DNA from: Bacillus renqingensis
GTDB lineage: Bacteria; Bacillota; Bacilli; Bacillales; Cytobacillaceae
Assembly (NCBI GenBank): GCA_016464375.1
Contig: JADDIU010000034.1
Coordinates: 1 to 24,000 of the forward strand
DNA: 24,000 nt
Reading direction: 5' to 3'
The notes below the pieces were generated by a model. It was not told the DNA's origin and ran no database searches. It saw only the letters and a list, made by a program, of their open reading frames with translations. Shown one piece after another: positions 3,854-15,216 of the stretch; positions within the stretch are counted from its first letter, which is position 1, and every line of letters starts with the position of its first letter. The translations under genes and the position numbers were made by a program.

Positions 3854-4069
3854 TTAATTTAACTTTTTAATTTCCTCCTCCGTCAGTCCAGTGACTTTTA
3901 ACACAACTTCGATACTTATCCCTTCATTTAACATCTTTTTGGCTGTTTCCTTTATTGCCTTTTCGATTCCTTCTTTTCTTCCTTCTTCTCTTCCTTCTTC
4001 TCTTCCTTCTTCCATTCCAAGCTTCTTATAGTACTTAGCAATCGAAGTATCGTCCAATGTCAGTCCCAT
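3854..4069 (-). CDS. Candidate intragenic small protein (71 aa, in frame with the C-terminal domain of the Rpn-family gene)
   Basis: The minus strand reads CGAAAAGGAGGAAAAAGAAATGGGACTG. A canonical AAAGGAGG (4078-4085) lies 8 nt upstream of an in-frame ATG (4069-4067), which would start MGLTLDDTSIAKYYKK... The signal is seen directly in the sequence, but expression is not shown. Confidence 0.3.
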   Translation of the reverse strand: MGLTLDDTSIAKYYKKLGMEEGREEGREEGRKEGIEKAIKETAKKMLNEGISIEVVLKVTGLTEEEIKKLN

Positions 4070-4768
4070 TTCTTTTTCCTCCTTTTCGATTAACGGTGAT
4101 ATTTCCTGCACCAATTGTTCCGTATCTTCTATTGGTAATTCAATTAAATGGTCAATAAAAATGAGTAATGGACGGATTTTTTCCCTCGGCAGTTTTTCAT
4201 CTGTAAGCAGTAATCTAAATAATTTTGCCTTATAATCCTTTTTGTTTCGTTTCCTAGATTTTAACATATAAAGGCCTGCGAGAACAACCAGTGCAAATGG
4301 ATTTTCAGAGCGTAGTAATTCTTCTTCTTGTTGTTCCAAAATTTTGTAGGTATTAAAAGTGTAGGTTAAGGTAGTGCCGAAAAAAGAATAATGATAAGAA
4401 TTGGGGTTAAATATTTTGGTTTTATCCGTGTACAGTGCTAATGTGTACAATTGTTGGTCATAGCTATCTAGGATTCGGTAAAAGTATTGAAACATCCGTT
4501 TAGGAAAATCCTCTTCTAACGTTCCCTGTATTTCGATATGAACGAGAACCCACTGTTCCTTTCCATCTTTTAATCTTACTTTCATCAACTTATCTGACCT
4601 GCGATTTTTTGAGCTTGCTTGGGGAAAGAGTTTGTGTAGTTCTTGTTCTAATGAAATCGGAGCAGTTGAAAAATCCACTTGTTCATATAGGGTCGGGGCG
4701 AAAAATAAAAGGAATTCCTCAAATAATTCAGTGATAATTTCCTTCCATAGTCGATCGTAGTCAGCCAA
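3854..4768 (-). CDS. Rpn/YhgA-like PD-(D/E)XK recombination-promoting nuclease ('putative transposase') family protein
   Basis: The N-terminus DYDRLWKEII..., the D-x(n)-HIEIQ nuclease-core pattern (SDKLMKV...VLVHIEIQG) and a C-terminal EG-rich linker plus the helical tail ...AKKMLNEGISIEVVLKVTGLTEEEIKKL are typical of this family. It uses a TTG start with the RBS GAAGGAG upstream. Confidence 0.8.
   Translation of the reverse strand: MADYDRLWKEIITELFEEFLLFFAPTLYEQVDFSTAPISLEQELHKLFPQASSKNRRSDKLMKVRLKDGKEQWVLVHIEIQGTLEEDFPKRMFQYFYRILDSYDQQLYTLALYTDKTKIFNPNSYHYSFFGTTLTYTFNTYKILEQQEEELLRSENPFALVVLAGLYMLKSRKRNKKDYKAKLFRLLLTDEKLPREKIRPLLIFIDHLIELPIEDTEQLVQEISPLIEKEEKEMGLTLDDTSIAKYYKKLGMEEGREEGREEGRKEGIEKAIKETAKKMLNEGISIEVVLKVTGLTEEEIKKLN
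3978..4013. repeat. In-frame 12-nt tandem repeat x3 (CTTCCTTCTTCT) encoding (EGRE)n in the Rpn-family gene
   Basis: Three consecutive 12-nt units are present, the last carrying one substitution. They translate on the minus strand to EGREEGREEGRK. Confidence 0.9.
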
Positions 4769-5065: not shown

Positions 5066-5716
5066 CTAGTTTATTATCTCAATCACTCGATTCAAATCCA
5101 CCGCAATTTCATAAGCGTGTTTTTTCATTTCATCATTAGGTTCGATTAAATCGGGAACAATAATGCAATTGATATTAGCCCCGACTGCTGCCCTTAACCC
5201 GTTTAGGGAATCTTCTAAAACAATGGAAGAGCCTGGCGACTCCTGAGCACGGTTACAGGCTTCTAAGAAAATATCCGGATAGGGCTTCCCCCTTTGTACC
5301 TCATCACCGCTTATATAAAAATCAAAACGATTCGTTAACCCTGTCATTGCTAAATATTGTTGAATTGTCTCCCGGCTGCTTGAAGAGGCAATACATTTTT
5401 TCAATCCCCGTCTCTCAATATAATCTAATAATTCATTAGCCCCGGGTTTAATCGTTAATCCTTCATTTTCAAGAATCTTTTTAAATGCCTTCAGGTAATC
5501 ACTTGTAATACGCTGTAGAGAAACCTCCTCTCCGTAAACCTCTTTTATTATTTCATCACATTTATGATCTGAAGCACCAATCATCCGTTTATAGATAGCC
5601 ATCGGAAAAGCCAAACCAAGCATCTCCAGCGCTTGCTTCATTGCCAAATAGGAAGGGCGCTCCGTATCAAACAATAGTCCATCCATATCAAATATAACTA
5701 ATTTTAAATCCTTCAA
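5066..5716 (-). CDS. HAD-IA family hydrolase (sugar-phosphate phosphatase / beta-phosphoglucomutase-like)
   Basis: HAD motif I (VIFDMDGLLFDTE), a cap region and a C-terminal DS..G motif (LEDSLNGLRAA) are present. It uses a TTG start with a G-rich RBS 9 nt upstream. Confidence 0.85.
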   Translation of the reverse strand: MKDLKLVIFDMDGLLFDTERPSYLAMKQALEMLGLAFPMAIYKRMIGASDHKCDEIIKEVYGEEVSLQRITSDYLKAFKKILENEGLTIKPGANELLDYIERRGLKKCIASSSSRETIQQYLAMTGLTNRFDFYISGDEVQRGKPYPDIFLEACNRAQESPGSSIVLEDSLNGLRAAVGANINCIIVPDLIEPNDEMKKHAYEIAVDLNRVIEIIN

Positions 5717-5817
5717 AAAATAGATCCCCCCTTAACATTTTGAAAAAAGACAGAGAGCTGACCCCCCTGCCTTATTTTGTAGAATTTTCGAGACTAGATA
5801 CTTTGTCCTTGCTTTTT

Positions 5818-6831
5818 CTAGTATTCTACCACCCGATAATATCTTCTAGTTGATAATGGGTGGTTTCTTTCCTTTTCTAAATGTGTACTAACTCTTTCAA
5901 ATAATGATGCAATAATGATAGGTGATAAGTATTTACGATACTTTTCACTGATTCCTTTAAGCTCGTATTGTTTAGTATCAAATATACTAAGTTTATCTGT
6001 AACCTTCAATGCAAAACGTTCAACCCGTTCCATTAATGGCCGGCTTTCATCCTCCCCCTTCATGAGAATCATACTAGTATCTTTCTCCACCAATTCTAAA
6101 GTACCATGAAAGAACTCAGCAGCATGAATGGCCTTAGTACGAATCCATTGCATTTCCTCAAGAACGCACATAGCATAAGAGTAGGTCTCCCCCCACACAC
6201 TTCCCGATCCAACAAGCATATGATAATCTTCATCTTTATTTAATTTGGCAAATTGGCTTGCTTGACTTTCAGTTGCCTCCTTTACATCTAAGAGGACTGA
6301 TGGCATTCTTTCAAGCTCATCCGCAAACTCCGTATATTCAGAAAACTCTCCTCTTACTTGAAGCAATTTGAAAATAAGCAAATATAATTGAAGATAAATG
6401 GATTCTGACGCAGTGTCATTCTCAGAATAATTCACTAATGTATAATCTGATAGATCAGCCAAAGGAGTTCCTAACTCACCAACCAGCCCAATAGTGGTGG
6501 CTCCCTTTTCCTTACAGAATTCTGCCGCCTTTACTGTTTCCTTAGTAGTTCCTGACAATGAGGAAAGGATCACTAAGGAATCCGGTCCAAATTGTTTGTG
6601 ATTATATAAAACAAATTCAGCTGCAATTTCAGCAAATACCGGAAGTGTAGAAGTCGTTTTAATTATATATTCAAACGGATACATAATAGCGATGGAACCA
6701 CCAGATCCAATTAAAAATAAATTTTTATAACCTCTCTCGTTAAGTGTTTCTACGATATCCTCAATTTGACCTCTTAAACCCAGGGCTCCATTCGTTACTT
6801 TTAAAAAGTTGTCTTTATTAAAATTAAACAT
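5818..6831 (-). CDS. SIS-domain protein, FrlB-like fructosamine-6-phosphate deglycase candidate
   Basis: SIS motifs are present (LFLIGSGGSIAIMYP; SSLSGTTKETVKAAEF...GATTIGLV). The ~337-aa length and double-SIS layout resemble FrlB/GfrF-type deglycases. The RBS AAGGAG lies upstream of the ATG. Confidence 0.7.
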   Translation of the reverse strand: MFNFNKDNFLKVTNGALGLRGQIEDIVETLNERGYKNLFLIGSGGSIAIMYPFEYIIKTTSTLPVFAEIAAEFVLYNHKQFGPDSLVILSSLSGTTKETVKAAEFCKEKGATTIGLVGELGTPLADLSDYTLVNYSENDTASESIYLQLYLLIFKLLQVRGEFSEYTEFADELERMPSVLLDVKEATESQASQFAKLNKDEDYHMLVGSGSVWGETYSYAMCVLEEMQWIRTKAIHAAEFFHGTLELVEKDTSMILMKGEDESRPLMERVERFALKVTDKLSIFDTKQYELKGISEKYRKYLSPIIIASLFERVSTHLEKERNHPLSTRRYYRVVEY

Positions 6832-10566: not shown

Positions 10567-10582
10567 TGCAAAAAGCGTGCCA
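10567..10582 (-). promoter_or_regulatory. Sigma-54 (-24/-12) promoter of the PTS operon: TTGGCACGCTTTTTGCAT
   Basis: The minus strand reads TGGCAC-N5-TTGCA, an exact match to the consensus TGGCAC-N5-TTGCW. It lies 40 nt upstream of the IIA ATG and directly downstream of a sigma-54 enhancer-binding-protein gene. Confidence 0.85.
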
Positions 10583-10596
10583 ACTTAGTGGCACGC
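10570..10596 (-). terminator. Terminator hairpin of the LevR-like gene (GCGTGCCA-N6-TGGCACGC + T5); its 3' arm is the -24 box
   Basis: The 8-bp GC-rich stem starts 13 nt after the activator stop codon (10610-10612). It is followed on the minus strand by TTTTT. Confidence 0.6.
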
Positions 10597-10609
10597 CTTT
10601 TTTAAAAAA

Positions 10610-13390
10610 TTAAAATTCCTCGTAAGCGCTTGATTCAGCAACGATATAATCGTAAATGTATCCGATTTCAGCCGTGGTGATTTTGACATTATAAATGTCT
10701 TCTATGACACTAAACGCTTCTTTGATGTATTTTATCATTTCCTTTTGACACTGTTCAAAATCTGCCAGATTTGCATAATTCTCGATCGGCGCCTGGCGAA
10801 TGAGCCTTTCCACCAAACAACTAACATGAACATATAATGCGACCTTTTTGTCATTTGACAGTCGCTTGTTTAGCCGGATCTCTAACCGATGAATAAATTC
10901 TTCGGCGTGGGAGAGGATTTTCTCCGAATCCAAAATGGTAATCGATTCAATGACACGTTCAAGGGAGCAATTGCGAATCAAGTTATCATTGATTTCTTTA
11001 AAACGCTCTTCCTTCATGATCGGCAGGAAGATTTTGCGCATCTTAGCCTCCCCTTGTCCAGAGATAATATCCTCTAATGAAAGATACGGGACGTTATCTA
11101 GACCGGGGTCGGTTGTCCCGACGATGGCAAGGACATCATAAATTTGAAAGATGGCCTCTGAAGTCCCCACTTCTTTAAGACGGTCATAATCATAAGCCAT
11201 GACTTGGATGGATAGATCCTCCGGTATACTGGCCTCGAGTAACTTCTGAATTTGGCAGGCCGTCCCCATCCCCGTTAAACACGAAGTGATGATGACCTTA
11301 TCTTTTTCCTTTTCAGGATAAATGATGTTATATTCTGTTTCATTTGCCGATTGCAATTTTTCAATCATTTCTTCTAAAAATAAATCCTTCTCCAGCATAC
11401 TGCCGAGAAATAGCGCCATTTGTGTGGAGACGTTATTTATAATCGCCACCGGGGCGTTTACATGTTTTTTAAATTGTGAATAGATATCTTTCAATGAACC
11501 CATATCGACTAAAATGACAAGCCCTTTTGAGACATCGTTATGTTCAATATAATCGACGACCTTGGCAGCGGTTTCCTCTACGGATATATCAATCGGCATA
11601 TCGAAGGCCTCAAAGACGTTCTTCTTCAGCAAACGATTGGCGACGTTGGCAATGCTGCTGGCGGTTGCATACCCATGGGCAAGAATGATTGCCTTTACTT
11701 GTTGATTTGTTCGTTCAATCGCCAAACTTCGCAAATAGAGGGCCAAAAGGATTTCATCCATTTGATAAAGCTTCACCTCTAGTTTGCTTTCCAGCAGATG
11801 GACAAATTGCTTCGCCAGCTGCTGCTCCATCCTGTAGGATACTTCAATATGATGGGCCAGCTTTTTGATGGTCGCCTCTTGTTTTTCAGACCATCTTATC
11901 ACCGTGCTGCCCTTGTAATAAAGGAAATGAGCAATGGCATAGATACTATTGCCATTAAATTTTATATGATAGTTATTTTCTAGATGCTGAATAATCTCTT
12001 GAACACTGACGGTCGTTAATTCCAACCTTACACCAGCGTCTTCTTTTGTATGATTAAAAATGAGCTGATCAAAGAGTAAGAGTATGTCGTTGATTACCTT
12101 TTGCTCAAAATATTTCTCATCCCAGCTTTTTGCCTGACGTTGTTCGAATAGGTCCAGCATTTTTTCAAATGTCTGTTTAATTAATTGCATATGCGAAATA
12201 CTTGTCTCGTATAATTGATCGAGGGTTGAGTCGGGATGAATCACCATATCGTGATGTTGCTTTAATTTGTTGTCTGTAAACCGGATCGTCTCTTCCAACA
12301 GTTGATCGGGCAAATCATGTAAAGTTACCTGAACTTCATCTGCGTCCTGATTTTTCACAAACGAGGAGGCGGCAATGTATTTGATCGTGTTTTTCAAGTC
12401 ACCCATGTTTCCCGTGTAATGGTATTTGGTTAAGGCATCAAGGGCCCGGTTCGTAATCCGAATCGGCTTGCCAAGTTTTTTGGCCTCGTTGATTAAAAAC
12501 AGATAAATAAATTGTTTCTTCTCTTTCTCCCCGCGTTCATCGAGGCTCGGTATCACGACACGAATGGGAATACGCCGCAAAAAGGTTGGTAAAAAACTCT
12601 CCTCCAAATTTTCCGTTGTTGCAAAGATCAGACGGACATTTGCTTGATGGCTGCCTTCACTTTCGCCCATACGACGAAAAACGCCTTGATCAAGGAAAGT
12701 GAACAGCTTCTCTTGTCCCTCGGCATTTAACCTGTGGACTTCATCTAAAAATAAGATTCCCCCATCGGCTGCGGCAAGCATCCCATCTTTTGTTTTATCA
12801 GCGCCGGTAAAGGCACCTTTGACATAGCCAAACAAATTACTCGACATGAGCTCGGGGTTGTTCGCATATTGGGCACAATTAAAACTAATAAACGGAGCAT
12901 CTTTCGCCAGTATCCCTTTTTCCACACTGTAACGATAGATTAATTCTGCAGTATAGCTTTTTCCTACCCCGGTCGGGCCGGATAATAGAATCGGCAGCCC
13001 GCCATCCGGGTAGAAAATGGACGTTTTCATCTGTTCGATCGCTTTTTCAAGACTACCGTCCGCGCCTATCAAACTTTCAAGGATATCTTGCGGAGGCTTT
13101 ACCTCCGGCTGACATTGCAGCAACTCTTGAAAACTAGAAAAAACATAGGTTGGCAGCGGAAAAAATTTTCGTTCAAATAGAGCGCGGCTTATGAAGTAGA
13201 CCGGTCTTGTGTTGATCTTAATAATCTTTTCCTCATCCACCAACTGATTGAGATAGTGACTCACGGTATTACGCTTCACAGCAAATAGTTCCGAAATTAC
13301 CCCAGCCGTCAACCTCTCTGAAGGCCTCTCCAAATCCAACCCATCTGTCTCCTTATCCAGAAAATCTAATAAACTCTCTTTTAAGCCCAT
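10610..13390 (-). CDS. Sigma-54-dependent, PRD-containing transcriptional activator (LevR family)
   Basis: The product contains an N-terminal HTH, an AAA+ sigma-54 interaction module (Walker A LLSGPTGVGKS; GAFTGA motif in GYVKGAFTGADK; Walker B ILFLDEV), a PRD, an EIIA(Man)-like segment (AIILAHGYATASS), an EIIB(Gat)-like Cys segment (VIITSCLTGMGTA) and a second PRD. The start is set at ATG 13390, where AGGTG lies 6 nt upstream. The track start 13459 adds 23 aa with no RBS. Confidence 0.9.
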   Translation of the reverse strand: MGLKESLLDFLDKETDGLDLERPSERLTAGVISELFAVKRNTVSHYLNQLVDEEKIIKINTRPVYFISRALFERKFFPLPTYVFSSFQELLQCQPEVKPPQDILESLIGADGSLEKAIEQMKTSIFYPDGGLPILLSGPTGVGKSYTAELIYRYSVEKGILAKDAPFISFNCAQYANNPELMSSNLFGYVKGAFTGADKTKDGMLAAADGGILFLDEVHRLNAEGQEKLFTFLDQGVFRRMGESEGSHQANVRLIFATTENLEESFLPTFLRRIPIRVVIPSLDERGEKEKKQFIYLFLINEAKKLGKPIRITNRALDALTKYHYTGNMGDLKNTIKYIAASSFVKNQDADEVQVTLHDLPDQLLEETIRFTDNKLKQHHDMVIHPDSTLDQLYETSISHMQLIKQTFEKMLDLFEQRQAKSWDEKYFEQKVINDILLLFDQLIFNHTKEDAGVRLELTTVSVQEIIQHLENNYHIKFNGNSIYAIAHFLYYKGSTVIRWSEKQEATIKKLAHHIEVSYRMEQQLAKQFVHLLESKLEVKLYQMDEILLALYLRSLAIERTNQQVKAIILAHGYATASSIANVANRLLKKNVFEAFDMPIDISVEETAAKVVDYIEHNDVSKGLVILVDMGSLKDIYSQFKKHVNAPVAIINNVSTQMALFLGSMLEKDLFLEEMIEKLQSANETEYNIIYPEKEKDKVIITSCLTGMGTACQIQKLLEASIPEDLSIQVMAYDYDRLKEVGTSEAIFQIYDVLAIVGTTDPGLDNVPYLSLEDIISGQGEAKMRKIFLPIMKEERFKEINDNLIRNCSLERVIESITILDSEKILSHAEEFIHRLEIRLNKRLSNDKKVALYVHVSCLVERLIRQAPIENYANLADFEQCQKEMIKYIKEAFSVIEDIYNVKITTAEIGYIYDYIVAESSAYEEF

Positions 13391-13508
13391 ATTTTTCACC
13401 TGCCTTGTAGGAATTGCCTCCTTCTTTGATGAAAGACGTAAGGCCAGCCGGACTGGCATATAGGAGAGGGCTGTCCACTAATCCTCTCGCTAGGTACCAC
13501 CTCAATTT

Positions 13509-14058
13509 TTGCGCGGCGGGCTAGCTGGATAATTAAAAGTGCGCGCGGCGGACGCCTTTTCTTTCTCACGCGTACTTTGAAACGCTCTAGGTGCGCGTGA
13601 CGGCCGATTTTTCTCCTGCACACGTACTTTGGATCGCTCTAAGTGCGCGCGGCGGGCACTTTTTCTCTTGCACGCGTACTTTGGATCGCTCTAAGTGCGC
13701 GCGGCGGGCACTTTTTCTCTTGCACGCGTACTTTGGATCGCTCTAAGTGCGCGCGGCGGGCACTTTTTCTCTTGCACGCGTACTTTGGATCGCTCTAAGT
13801 GCGCGCGGCGGGCACTTTTTCTCTCGCACGCGCACTTTAGATCGCTCTAAGTGCGCGCGACCGACACTTTTTCTCTCACATGCGCACTTTGGACCCCTCT
13901 AAGTGCGCACGGCCGACACTTTTTCTCCTGCATGCGTACTTTGGATCGCTCTAAGTGCGCGCGACTGACACTTTTTCTCTCGCACGCGTACTTTGGACCC
14001 CTCTAAGTGCGCGCGACCGGCACTTTTTCCCCCGCACGCGCACTTTGGACCATTCTCA
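13509..14058. repeat. GC-rich 52-bp tandem repeat array, ~10 units plus one degenerate partial unit
   Basis: Unit starts are 13539, 13591, 13643, 13695, 13747, 13799, 13851, 13903, 13955 and 14007. The consensus is GTGCGCGCGGCGGGCACTTTTTCTCTTGCACGCGTACTTTGGATCGCTCTAA. Units at 13643, 13695 and 13747 are identical and the outer units diverge. There is no unique spacer between units, and the period is not a multiple of 3. Confidence 0.95.
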
Positions 14059-14087
14059 AAAAGGCAGCTGAATAAAATCGCTGCCTT
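14055..14087 (-). terminator. Intrinsic terminator of galE (AAGGCAGC-N11-GCTGCCTT + TTTGAG)
   Basis: An 8-bp stem lies 18 nt after the galE stop, followed by a T-run on the minus strand. It abuts the last unit of the 52-bp array. Confidence 0.75.
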
Positions 14088-14104
14088 CTATCTATCAATT
14101 GATA

Positions 14105-15112
14105 TTAATACCCATTAGGGTTGTTCTTTTGCCATCTCCATGAATCGCGGCACATGTCTTCGATACCGTGTTCTGCAGCCCAGCCGAGTTCTGTTTTCGC
14201 CTTAGATGGATCGGCGTAACAGATGGCAACATCCCCTGGCCGTCTATCAACGATCTTATGAGGTATTTCCACACCAGACGCCTTTTCAAATGCGGAAACG
14301 ATTTCTAACACACTATAACCCGTGCCGGTTCCCAAATTATAGGCTTCCACACCGCTTGTGGGCAGTATTTTTTCAAGTGCCTTTAAGTGGCCCTTTGCCA
14401 AATCAACGACATGAATGTAGTCACGAACACCGGTACCATCAACTGTCGGATAATCATTACCGAACACTTGCAGCTCCTGCAGTTTGCCTACGGCAATCTG
14501 GGTAATAAATGGCATGAGGTTGTTTGGAATCCCGTTCGGATCCTCGCCAATCCGGCCGCTCTCATGTGCCCCGATTGGGTTAAAATAGCGCAATAACGCA
14601 ATGCTCCAGTCGTGATCGGACACATATATATCGCGCAAAATCTCCTCAATCATCAGCTTCGTCCGACCGTACGGATTCGTGGCGCTAAGCGGGAAGTCCT
14701 CGGAAATCGGCACCGTCTCCGGCATCCCATACACCGTTGCCGATGAACTGAACACAAGATTCTTCACATCATACTTTTTCATAACTTCACAAAGAATCAA
14801 TGTACCTGTTATATTATTATGATAATATTTAAGTGGAATCGATACCGATTCCCCCACTGCCTTCAAGCCAGCGAAGTGGATAACCGCTTCAATTTCATTT
14901 CTTGAAAAAATCTCTTCAAGGTCTTCGCGGTCAAGAAGATCCACCTCATGGAATGGGACATCCTTTCCCGTAATCTCTTTCACCCGTGTCAAGACTTCAG
15001 GCTTGCTGTTTGAAAAATTATCGACCACAATGATCTCATAGCCGGCATTCAGCAGCTCAACACAAGTATGGCTGCCAATATACCCGGCACCGCCTGTCAC
15101 TAATATCGCCAT
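14105..15112 (-). CDS. galE: UDP-glucose 4-epimerase
   Basis: The N-terminal Rossmann motif [15 protein letters not shown], the SSSATVYG and YGRTK (catalytic YxxxK) motifs, and the 335-aa length are typical of GalE. The RBS AAAGGAG lies upstream. Confidence 0.92.
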
Positions 15113-15216
15113 AATTCGATTTCTCCTTTTTAAGAAATTTACCCAGTCTTATCTTAACACAAATTTGAAAGTACGGGGCGGATCTTCTGCTTCAACCTAA
15201 TTTTTACAGAGCAAAC

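Follow-up and report, generated by a model that had tools for sequence, protein, structure and literature searches.

A GC-rich array of 52-bp tandem repeats fills the space between galE and the gene of a sigma-54 activator in a contig from Bacillus renqingensis, and the question is what kind of element this is and whether it does anything for the genes beside it. We analyzed 24,000 nt of this DNA (contig JADDIU010000034.1, positions 1 to 24,000), referred to below as the window.

Structure and setting of the array

The features of the locus, from galE through the array to the promoter beyond the activator gene, are as follows.

14105-15112, minus strand: galE (UDP-glucose 4-epimerase; TIGR01179, 478 bits), transcriptionally upstream of the array
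14058-14089, minus strand: intrinsic terminator of galE, AAGGCAGC-loop-GCTGCCTT followed by TTTTTG, directly adjoining the last unit
13537-14056, no strand assigned: ten head-to-tail 52-bp units (TRF, in-register listing, HMM and covariance-model matches), with the plus-strand unit consensus AAGTGCGCGCGGCGGGCACTTTTTCTCTTGCACGCGTACTTTGGATCGCTCT
13641-13796, no strand assigned: units 3-5, mutually identical (52/52), the homogenised core (in-register listing, mismatch matrix)
13509-13536 (approximate), no strand assigned: degenerate partial unit at the activator-proximal edge, retaining GCGCGGCGGGC, which is common to the unit
13391-13508, minus strand: leader from the array to the activator start, with hairpins at about 13464-13488 and 13443-13457 and the ribosome-binding site AGGTG
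10610-13390, minus strand: GfrR/LevR-type sigma-54 activator with PRD and EIIA-man domains (926 aa, start corrected to 13390)
10568-10582, minus strand: sigma-54 (-24/-12) promoter TGGCACGCTTTTTGC, serving the downstream mannose-family PTS / SIS-deglycase operon

TRF reported a single array (13537-14049, period 52, 9.9 copies, 88% matches, no indels, score 711), and cutting it in register gave ten units, the non-identical ones matching the consensus at 43-49 of 52 positions. Both results agree with the ten units and one degenerate partial unit described in an earlier note on this DNA, and the identical central block placed there at 13643-13798 is the block at 13641-13796, offset by 2 bp. The exactly periodic stretch is 184 bp long and comprises units 3-5 together with 28 nt of unit 6. 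The 27-nt core of the unit gave eight matches at three or fewer mismatches, against none in 100 shuffles. Towards the activator, the degenerate partial unit was matched weakly by the covariance model (15.3 bits, 13507-13561), and it is kept in a related strain. Each unit is built of a conserved imperfect palindrome across the junction, a fast-evolving GC-rich spacer and a conserved T5 run. The array stands out as had been claimed, with a GC content of 57% against 39% for the window, and on its plus strand C exceeds G.

A coding repeat was ruled out, as the note had concluded from the period, since stop codons occur in all six frames at about one per 156 nt on both strands. A CRISPR-like array was likewise ruled out: the copies are homologous over the full 52 bp of the unit, leaving no unique spacers, and the ORFs of the window include no cas genes.

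Both borders of the array lie where they had been reported. The last unit adjoins the terminator stem of galE (14063-14068 / 14080-14085), which folds at -17 kcal/mol (z -3.96) on the minus strand and is kept in the related strain. At the other end, the degenerate partial unit begins 119 nt upstream of the activator start codon at 13390, where about 120 nt had been stated. A longer activator ORF from 13459 is without a ribosome-binding site, and homologues of the protein, which carry the source name 'gfr operon transcriptional activator', start at the later ATG. The host belongs to Neobacillus and is closely related to N. mesonae, and the GalE proteins of the window and of N. mesonae are 90% identical. 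All credible genes between 3854 and 23989 are on the minus strand, and the few plus-strand ORFs there overlap them. No sigma-A promoter was recognisable between the galE terminator and the activator start codon, and no -24/-12 promoter was found ahead of the activator gene. The array occupies the place expected for the expression signals of the activator, and from this position it might contribute to such signals.

Distribution of the unit and variation between strains

Look-ups by exact sequence matched no record for the window's galE, activator, aldehyde dehydrogenase and aminotransferase products; related loci were reached through searches with the EIIB protein and homologues. Looking for copies of the unit in relatives had been proposed as a check, and in about 670 kb of related DNA, including some 75 kb from the same species, neither the HMM nor the covariance model found a second copy. 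Exact searches with one junction pattern gave no match in 185,579 species-representative genomes, and the same was true of metagenome contigs (two patterns) and viral contigs (one pattern). Comparison with plasmids and phages by blastn returned no match. Rfam yielded nothing at gathering thresholds and, with E-values relaxed to 10, only matches at chance level, and the STAR consensus was not found in the array at two or fewer mismatches. A translation of the array, compared with 5.8 billion predicted proteins in search of spurious ORFs from sister arrays, found nothing, this search being of low power with such short peptides, and the literature on a Bacillaceae repeat of this kind held nothing relevant. 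The statement that the array belongs to no named repeat family therefore stands in all the collections searched.

In strain ERR15097057 an array lies at the same position with about eight different units (7.9 by TRF), against ten in the window. This assembly covers the full array with both its borders, the galE terminator and the activator leader, and its units are mutually distinct. A third strain carries a further array allele, marked by a different activator-side unit (seen in SRR13994265 and SRR25666313), and its assembly breaks inside the array. Because copy number and unit content differ between strains at the same position, the array is a VNTR, which had been one of the possibilities raised earlier. 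Variation of this sort, in number and sequence of the units among close Neobacillus relatives, makes it a bacterial minisatellite of an ordinary kind.

The polymorphism is concentrated in the array. Between the window and the related strain the flanks are 99.6% identical over 13.6 kb on the activator side and 96.1% identical in galE, with 91% for the leader, while the array reaches only about 80%. The edge units are mutual best matches across the strains (W1 of the window with S1 of the related strain, W10 with S8, six mismatches each), and the interior units cluster inside each strain's own array in the mismatch matrix. Judged by these mismatches, the edge units are orthologous between the strains and the interior units are homogenised.

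The array is absent from orthologous activator loci at which the activators are 89%, 84% and 83% identical, and also from the region downstream of galE in N. mesonae. N. paridis and B. rubiinfantis also have tandem repeats at this position, which at first suggested an array conserved upstream of this activator. This parallel was rejected because those repeats are a different, AT-rich 21-bp family, which is also present elsewhere in the window's own species; the array-free closer orthologues (83-89% identity) are a further argument against it.

The junction hairpin and explanations of the array

The earlier note had claimed a 9-bp hairpin, CGCG(T/C)ACTT-N11-AAGTGCGCG, at every unit junction. 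All nine internal junctions in the window have it, one of them (2/3) with an A.C mismatch. The whole structure is a 12-bp bulged stem, with a bulged T42 and a variable tetraloop, and it recurs each 52 bp. Two junctions serve as reference below.

13673-13701, plus strand: example of the junction hairpin, 9-bp stem CGCGTACTT/AAGTGCGCG extended by GGA/UCU
13881-13909, plus strand: junction 7/8, the sole two-sided (compensated) change, C-G to T-A

Across 15 modules, 96-98.5% of the hairpin cells are paired. Nucleotide diversity (pi) is low in the T-run (0.04) and the stems (0.10) and higher in the spacer (0.32) and the loop (0.39), and the lower variability of the stems is significant by permutation (p = 0.002). 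The T5 run and the ACTTT tract show the highest conservation outside the stems and recur roughly in phase. Stem variants comprise 11 transitions and no transversions, compared to 16 and 12 elsewhere (Fisher p = 0.009). With conserved stems, a variable loop and transition-only stem changes, the junction hairpin appears to be constrained. In a neutral array, one would expect variation to be spread evenly over the unit. Given the marked conservation of the stems and the T-run, either of these elements could instead be of use to the cell. The compensated pair at 13881/13909 is real, as had been described; covariation in the hairpin was not significant and did not rise above shuffle controls.

The two strands fold differently. 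Per module, the plus strand reaches -14.6 to -20.1 kcal/mol and the minus strand -12.2 kcal/mol, with z-scores of -3.25 (at -20.1) and -0.61 (at -12.2), and four consecutive units fold at -88.1 (z -4.9) on the plus strand against -68.4 (z -2.6) on the minus strand. A preference for the plus strand had also been read from G-U pairing. The consensus agrees with it, since two U.G pairs of the stem on the plus strand would be C.A on the minus strand, but the derived wobble-type changes do not, as a hand count gave three on each strand.

A second, terminator-like fold, AAGTGC-N9-GCACTT followed by a T-run, had been attributed to every unit. Units 3-6 and 10 have it complete, units 7-9 only in weakened form and units 1-2 not at all; in 11 of the 15 modules the closing pair is lost, and covariation was not seen. 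This fold was rejected as not conserved across modules, and with it falls the proposal that each unit offers two mutually exclusive folds. An array of tandem intrinsic terminators was rejected as well: a scan of the array found no terminator-like site, and a stem abutting the T-run is not conserved, the conserved junction stem lying about 11 nt from it. The trinucleotide GGA is present at the hairpin tip in 10 of the 15 modules and is variable (pi 0.38 at G44). A sponge RNA of the Csr/Rsm type was rejected on this variability and because a plus-strand transcript would have neither promoter nor terminator.

We consider the array to be, with a probability of about 0.55, a lineage-specific, non-coding, hairpin-driven minisatellite (VNTR) that fills the stretch from the terminator of galE to the gfrR-like activator gene, changing by slippage or unequal exchange. 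Copies would be gained and lost through replication slippage and unequal exchange between units, and this turnover would homogenise the interior while the edge units are left to diverge. The hairpin would be the maintained part, either by driving misalignment so that intact units are copied or by bringing a small benefit. In established models of repeat instability, hairpins on the nascent lagging strand favour expansion over deletion. The plus strand folds into the more stable hairpins and, being C-rich and opposite to all genes, is probably the nascent lagging one; gene orientation and base skew within the 24 kb are the basis of both the slippage and the replication-strand arguments. The effect on the neighbours is probably passive, the array acting as a structured spacer of about 0.5 kb that separates galE termination from the activator. 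The array is probably not a dedicated regulatory device.

The same hairpins might instead be under purifying selection, forming about ten strand-specific single-stranded hairpins (RNA or DNA) with U/T-runs that titrate or scaffold a protein or control transcription into the promoter-less activator, so that copy number would tune a sugar-amine PTS of the fructoselysine/glucoselysine type; we hold this to be improbable. Equally doubtful are plus-strand RNA modules, with G.U pairs and U-runs, working as a small RNA, as a protein sponge or scaffold, or as serial antisense stops. Structured RNA modules had been among the original proposals, and the conserved hairpin, with its transition-only stem changes and variable loop, the much better folding of the plus strand, the consensus U.G pairs and the GGA tips fit this part of the note. 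The lack of covariation above shuffle controls does not, nor does the promoter scan, which found nothing in the array on either strand; no plus-strand site reached 8/12, the best candidate being GATAAT with a poor -35, and credible genes over 20 kb are all on the minus strand. The even strand distribution of wobble-type changes, the distance from the stem to the U-run, the poor conservation of the stem that would adjoin it and the absence of an Rfam match also argue against RNA modules. Moreover, the hypervariability of the array between strains and its absence from the closest orthologous loci are not what a conserved regulatory RNA would show. A role as double-stranded DNA, in which phased protein-binding palindromes or curved DNA set activator expression or insulate it from galE, appears unlikely as well. 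By arithmetic, the 52-bp period is about 4.9-5.0 helical turns and places the units on one helical face, as the note had inferred; the T5 run and ACTTT tract recur roughly in phase, the conserved half-sites flanking a variable 4-bp center would suit a dimer-binding site, and the activator is without a visible ordinary promoter. In a wedge model, the ratio of end-to-end distance to contour length was 0.58 for the array and 0.81 for other 520-bp windows, and only 6% of shuffled-unit arrays were as bent; the model is rough, and the curvature signal is weak and model-dependent. However, the palindrome is asymmetric, the bulged T42 shifting the outer half-sites by 1 bp, and transition-only stem changes fit base pairing better than protein contacts. 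Binding sites for the neighboring activator were rejected since the unit motif does not occur ahead of the sigma-54 promoter at 10568-10582, where the activator itself should bind, and the array shares no motif with that region. The activator orthologues of 83-89% identity, moreover, have no such array.

It is quite unlikely that the array belongs to a dispersed REP/BIME-, BOX- or MITE-like family of this Neobacillus lineage, spread by a hairpin-recognising enzyme and out of view in 24 kb of DNA. A GC-rich imperfect palindrome that is extragenic and beside a terminator resembles REP-type elements, a constraint on the hairpin would be expected from an enzyme that works on single-stranded hairpins, and related Bacillaceae carry other dispersed intergenic repeat families. 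Against this stand the missing second copy in the related loci, the empty pattern and blastn searches, the absence of a transposase or RAYT-like gene among the ORFs of the window and the arrangement of the units, which are all direct repeats and never alternate in orientation. That the array is an assembly artefact, not existing in the organism in its present form, is hardly credible. The exactly periodic stretch is one in which short reads cannot count copies reliably, and two related short-read assemblies break within the array. Yet the independent assembly of ERR15097057 spans the complete orthologous array of mutually distinct units, and the array edges agree across three samples. The existence of the array in the organism is thereby confirmed; the exact number of identical central units is provisional.

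The array can be used as it is as a typing marker of high discriminating power in this Neobacillus lineage, and it marks a place where short-read assemblies break or miscount. As a minisatellite with orthologous edges, a homogenised center and conservation focused on hairpins whose stems change by transitions alone, it is a clean small case of concerted evolution in bacteria, and the idea that expansion is driven by hairpin stability and replication orientation could be tested on it. Should the hairpins or their copy number affect the sigma-54 activator, the locus would provide a contingency-type control over an operon for sugar-amine utilisation in a soil member of the Bacillaceae.

Comparison with known repeat systems

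The STAR element of S. aureus, with the 14-nt GC-rich consensus T(G/A/T)TGTTG(G/T)GGCCC(C/A), is a short repeat whose copies are separated by intervening sequences and lie at many loci. The array resembles it as a set of GC-rich repeats in AT-rich intergenic DNA that is hypervariable between strains, but it is without the STAR consensus. In pneumococcal BOX elements, tandem boxB modules are flanked by boxA and boxC, and the elements are dispersed in more than 100 copies. Shared with BOX are a unit length of about 45-52 bp, a variable number of copies, hairpins predicted to be stable and an intergenic location in a low-GC Firmicute. In contrast to BOX, the array is flanked only by the degenerate unit and the galE terminator, with no boxA- or boxC-like modules, and was found at a single locus.

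Enterobacterial REP/BIME-2 elements are GC-rich imperfect palindromes at the 3' ends of genes, with up to about a dozen per cluster, and their hairpins are bulged and tolerate G.T pairs. In BIMEs the palindromic units alternate in orientation, hundreds of copies are dispersed, and cognate RAYT transposases exist. The units of the array are also GC-rich, bulged-hairpin palindromes, extragenic and beside the 3' end of a gene. They differ in having all the same orientation, no other copy in about 670 kb and no RAYT-like gene nearby among the window ORFs.

Mycobacterial MIRUs and staphylococcal SIRUs are intergenic VNTRs of tandem non-coding units of about 40-100 bp, present at many loci. MIRUs lie inside operons and have small ORFs overlapping the stop and start codons of the neighboring genes, whereas a strong galE terminator precedes the array and no ORF continues into its neighbors. 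The sequence of the array is unrelated to these systems, and one locus was found in about 670 kb as opposed to their many loci. The likeness to MIRUs and SIRUs lies in the arrangement: the array is tandem, non-coding and intergenic, its 52-bp period is within their range, and copy number and unit sequence vary between strains at a fixed locus. A tandem unit of 10-100 bp that is strain-variable and non-coding is what characterises VNTRs and minisatellites, and this is what the array presents.

Organization of the array and its surroundings

Tandem Repeats Finder reported one large array at 13537-14049 with a period of 52, 9.9 copies, 88% matches and zero indels, and cutting it in register gave ten units (13537-14056). 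Three of them, units 3-5 (13641-13796), share one sequence; the remaining units match 43-49 of the 52 consensus positions. The GC content of the array is 57%, compared with 39% for the window. Stop codons occur about once per 156 nt in all reading frames of both strands, so the array is non-coding. The array is genuine and the earlier note had described it accurately: the hairpins at the unit junctions and the compensated junction at 13881/13909 were recovered, and the placement between the galE terminator and the activator gene is correct. Every flanking gene lies on the minus strand.

Features of the array and its neighbourhood
14105-15112, minus strand: galE (TIGR01179, 478 bits)
14058-14089, minus strand: galE terminator, fold of -17 kcal/mol and a U-run
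about 13509-13536: degenerate remnant of the array, retaining GCGCGGCGGGC
downstream of the array, minus strand: sigma-54 activator gene, with PRD and EIIA-man domains
10568-10582, minus strand: sigma-54 -24/-12 promoter of the operon, TGGCACGCTTTTTGC
after the activator, minus strand: mannose-family PTS IIA, IIB, IIC and IID, two SIS-domain enzymes and a HAD hydrolase

The window GalE and its Neobacillus mesonae counterpart share 90% identity, which identifies the host as a Neobacillus close to N. mesonae. Homologues of the activator are named 'gfr operon transcriptional activator' in the sources, i.e., the fructoselysine/glucoselysine type. The longest activator ORF begins at an upstream ATG at 13459 that lacks a ribosome-binding site; because homologues and gene calls also start later, the ATG at 13390 (926 aa, RBS AGGTG) was taken as the true start. 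The leader (13391-13536, minus strand) is GC-rich with two hairpins. The scan of 13300-14150 found no terminator-like site and, on either strand, no sigma-A-like promoter scoring at least 8/12; no ordinary promoter of the activator's own is visible between the galE terminator and its start. By eye, the N. paridis and B. rubiinfantis orthologues appear to carry promoter-like sequences downstream of a strong terminator. An apparent activator terminator hairpin, GGCGTGCCA...TGGCACGC with a T-run, lies at 10568-10601 (minus strand), and since its 3' arm is the PTS-operon promoter, promoter and terminator overlap. Elsewhere in the window, a 12/24-bp tandem repeat, TTCCTTCTTCTC (3958-4018), lies within a 304-aa minus-strand ORF (3854-4768) that matches no Pfam family; the repeat is probably coding and Glu/Lys-rich, and it also occurs in related strains (L041 9623-9668).

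Variation between related strains

Related contigs from three further samples were retrieved through exact look-up of the window EIIB and a 98%-identical GalE. The ERR15097057 contig covers the entire spacer, comprising the galE terminator, about eight mutually distinct units of 52-53 bp, the same degenerate edge as in the window, and the activator leader. In SRR13994265, the 2.7 units nearest galE are the same as in ERR15097057; on the activator side the second unit differs, an allele also present in SRR25666313, and the assembly is broken within the array. The array is thus a VNTR across related strains, with approximately 80% identity and unequal copy number between them and the window.

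When units of the window (W1-W10) were compared with those of ERR15097057 (S1-S8), the edge units proved to be positional orthologues (W1 with S1 and W10 with S8, six mismatches each), and interior units were most like neighbours in their own array. Orthologous edges with an array-specific interior are what unequal exchange or slippage, with concerted evolution, typically leaves behind. Outside the array, window and related strains are 99.6% identical across 13.6 kb on the activator side, 91% in the activator leader and 96.1% in galE, and are unrelated upstream of the galE promoter. Recombination breakpoints may cluster around galE and the array, as suggested by this unequal divergence on the two sides (0.4% versus 3.9%, then non-homology). 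Homology ends about 80 bp upstream of galE (window 13300-15200 against the related-strain loci L041 and L045), where the window carries an aldehyde dehydrogenase and an aminotransferase and the other strain a PTS EIIBC and an MR_MLE (mandelate racemase/muconate lactonizing enzyme family) gene.

The conserved hairpin and its interpretation

Fifteen distinct modules, i.e., repeat segments centred on the unit junctions, were aligned. Their conserved core is a plus-strand hairpin in which CGCGYACTT pairs with AAGTGCGCG of the following unit over 9 bp, T42 is bulged and GGA-TCT adds 3 bp; the loop is 4 nt long (variants TCGC, CCCC, ACGC, ACAC, ATGC and ACGA). Standard plus-strand pairs fill 98.5% of the 9-bp-stem cells and 96.1% of the 12-bp-stem cells. 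Across 17 distinct units, the stems had a nucleotide diversity of 0.10 and the T-run one of 0.04, compared with 0.39 for the loop and 0.32 for the GC-rich spacer; a permutation test showed the stems to be less variable (p = 0.002). All 11 variant stem alleles are transitions, whereas positions outside the stems show 16 transitions and 12 transversions (Fisher p = 0.009). The low diversity and the transition-only variants together indicate a constraint centred on the hairpin. Covariation was not significant, with one two-sided change and the observed measures reached in 33-106 of 500 shuffles. The second fold put forward previously, AAGTGC-N9-GCACTT before the T-run, did not hold up as a conserved structure: 81% of its cells are paired, 11 of the 15 modules have a broken closing pair, and it lacks covariation.

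With its tandem structure, strain polymorphism, orthologous edges around a homogenised centre and hairpin-centred constraint, the array is best explained as a hairpin-bearing minisatellite altered by slippage and unequal exchange. In established models of repeat instability, expansion is favoured when stable hairpins form on the nascent lagging strand, and deletion is disfavoured when hairpins on the lagging-strand template are weaker. Being C-rich and opposite to all genes, the plus strand is probably the nascent lagging strand. Stem conservation could then stem from preferential copying of intact units and not from a cellular benefit.

The earlier note had also proposed RNA modules or a protein-binding array. 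Plus-strand RNA modules would agree with the folding energies, since single modules reach -14.6 to -20.1 kcal/mol (z about -3) on the plus strand versus -12.2 (z -0.6) on the minus strand, and four units -88.1 (z -4.9) versus -68.4 (z -2.6). Two T.G pairs in the consensus stem account for this difference. Derived transition-type mispairs, counted manually, do not favour either strand, with three plus-strand wobbles (positions 2, 8 and 33) and three minus-strand wobbles (positions 7, 34 and 44). No Rfam family matches the array. A dedicated plus-strand transcript is unlikely because all credible genes in 3854-23989 are on the minus strand, plus-strand ORFs there only overlapping them, and we regard RNA modules as improbable. 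A phased protein-binding or curved-DNA element appears similarly doubtful; in a rough wedge model, the predicted end-to-end/contour ratio is 0.58 against 0.81 in other windows and lies below that of 94% of shuffled-unit arrays. Given the hairpin-centred constraint and the fact that no promoter is visible for the adjacent activator, there is a small probability that the hairpin array has a genuine strand-specific function. That the array is an assembly artefact is hardly credible.

Distribution and relation to known repeats

A dispersed REP/MITE-like family, unseen in the window, is quite unlikely. One junction-spanning exact pattern had no match in one genome per species of 185,579 species, two had none in JGI metagenome contigs and one had none in viral contigs, and blastn against plasmids and phages did not match the array. 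Neither a unit HMM nor a covariance model detected an additional copy in about 670 kb of comparison loci, including about 75 kb from the window's species as well as 21 kb from N. mesonae. Downstream of galE, N. mesonae has neither array nor activator, and orthologous activators (89%, 84% and 83% identity) have different neighbourhoods and no tandem array upstream. Within the sequences searched, the 52-bp array is confined to this lineage and locus.

Tandem repeats do occur upstream of the activator orthologues of N. paridis and B. rubiinfantis; they were rejected as the same family, being a distinct AT-rich family of about 21 bp (41/42-bp dimers; among its motifs are GACGG(G/A)TAAA, GGCGGATAAA and TTCGCTAATAAAC).

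AT-rich repeats of about 21 bp in the comparison loci
L001, 2475-2616
L002 (B. rubiinfantis), 5542-5910
L045 (related strain), 390-630

These repeats sit on either side of a terminator hairpin, GTGCC(A/T)GGCAC, and look like a dispersed Bacillaceae family. They are absent from the window; another locus of the window's species carries them, with cbiQ and an MFS gene as neighbours on the two sides. B. rubiinfantis also carries, following a gene end (L002 14585-14784), 3.9 copies of a 51-bp unit with a hairpin, TTGTCCA...TGGACAA, beside GAAAAAG/CTTTTTC, which is loosely alike in layout to the window unit but unrelated in sequence. An uncultured Clostridia MAG has a CRISPR array (L034 9502-11264; repeat GTTGTTAGTCTACCTATAAGGAATTGAAAC) close to a distant homologue of the activator; this CRISPR array is unrelated to the 52-bp array.

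The 52-bp array itself is neither a CRISPR array, nor a set of canonical terminators, nor an Rfam family. It operates like MIRU, BIME-2/REP, BOX and STAR, but belongs to none of them: its sequence is unrelated and, unlike them, it shows no evidence of dispersal. Its units are all direct repeats, in contrast to BIME-2/REP, and it lacks the boxA or boxC flanks of BOX, the STAR motif and the operon-internal ORF coupling of MIRU. The array has the defining features of a bacterial VNTR/minisatellite.
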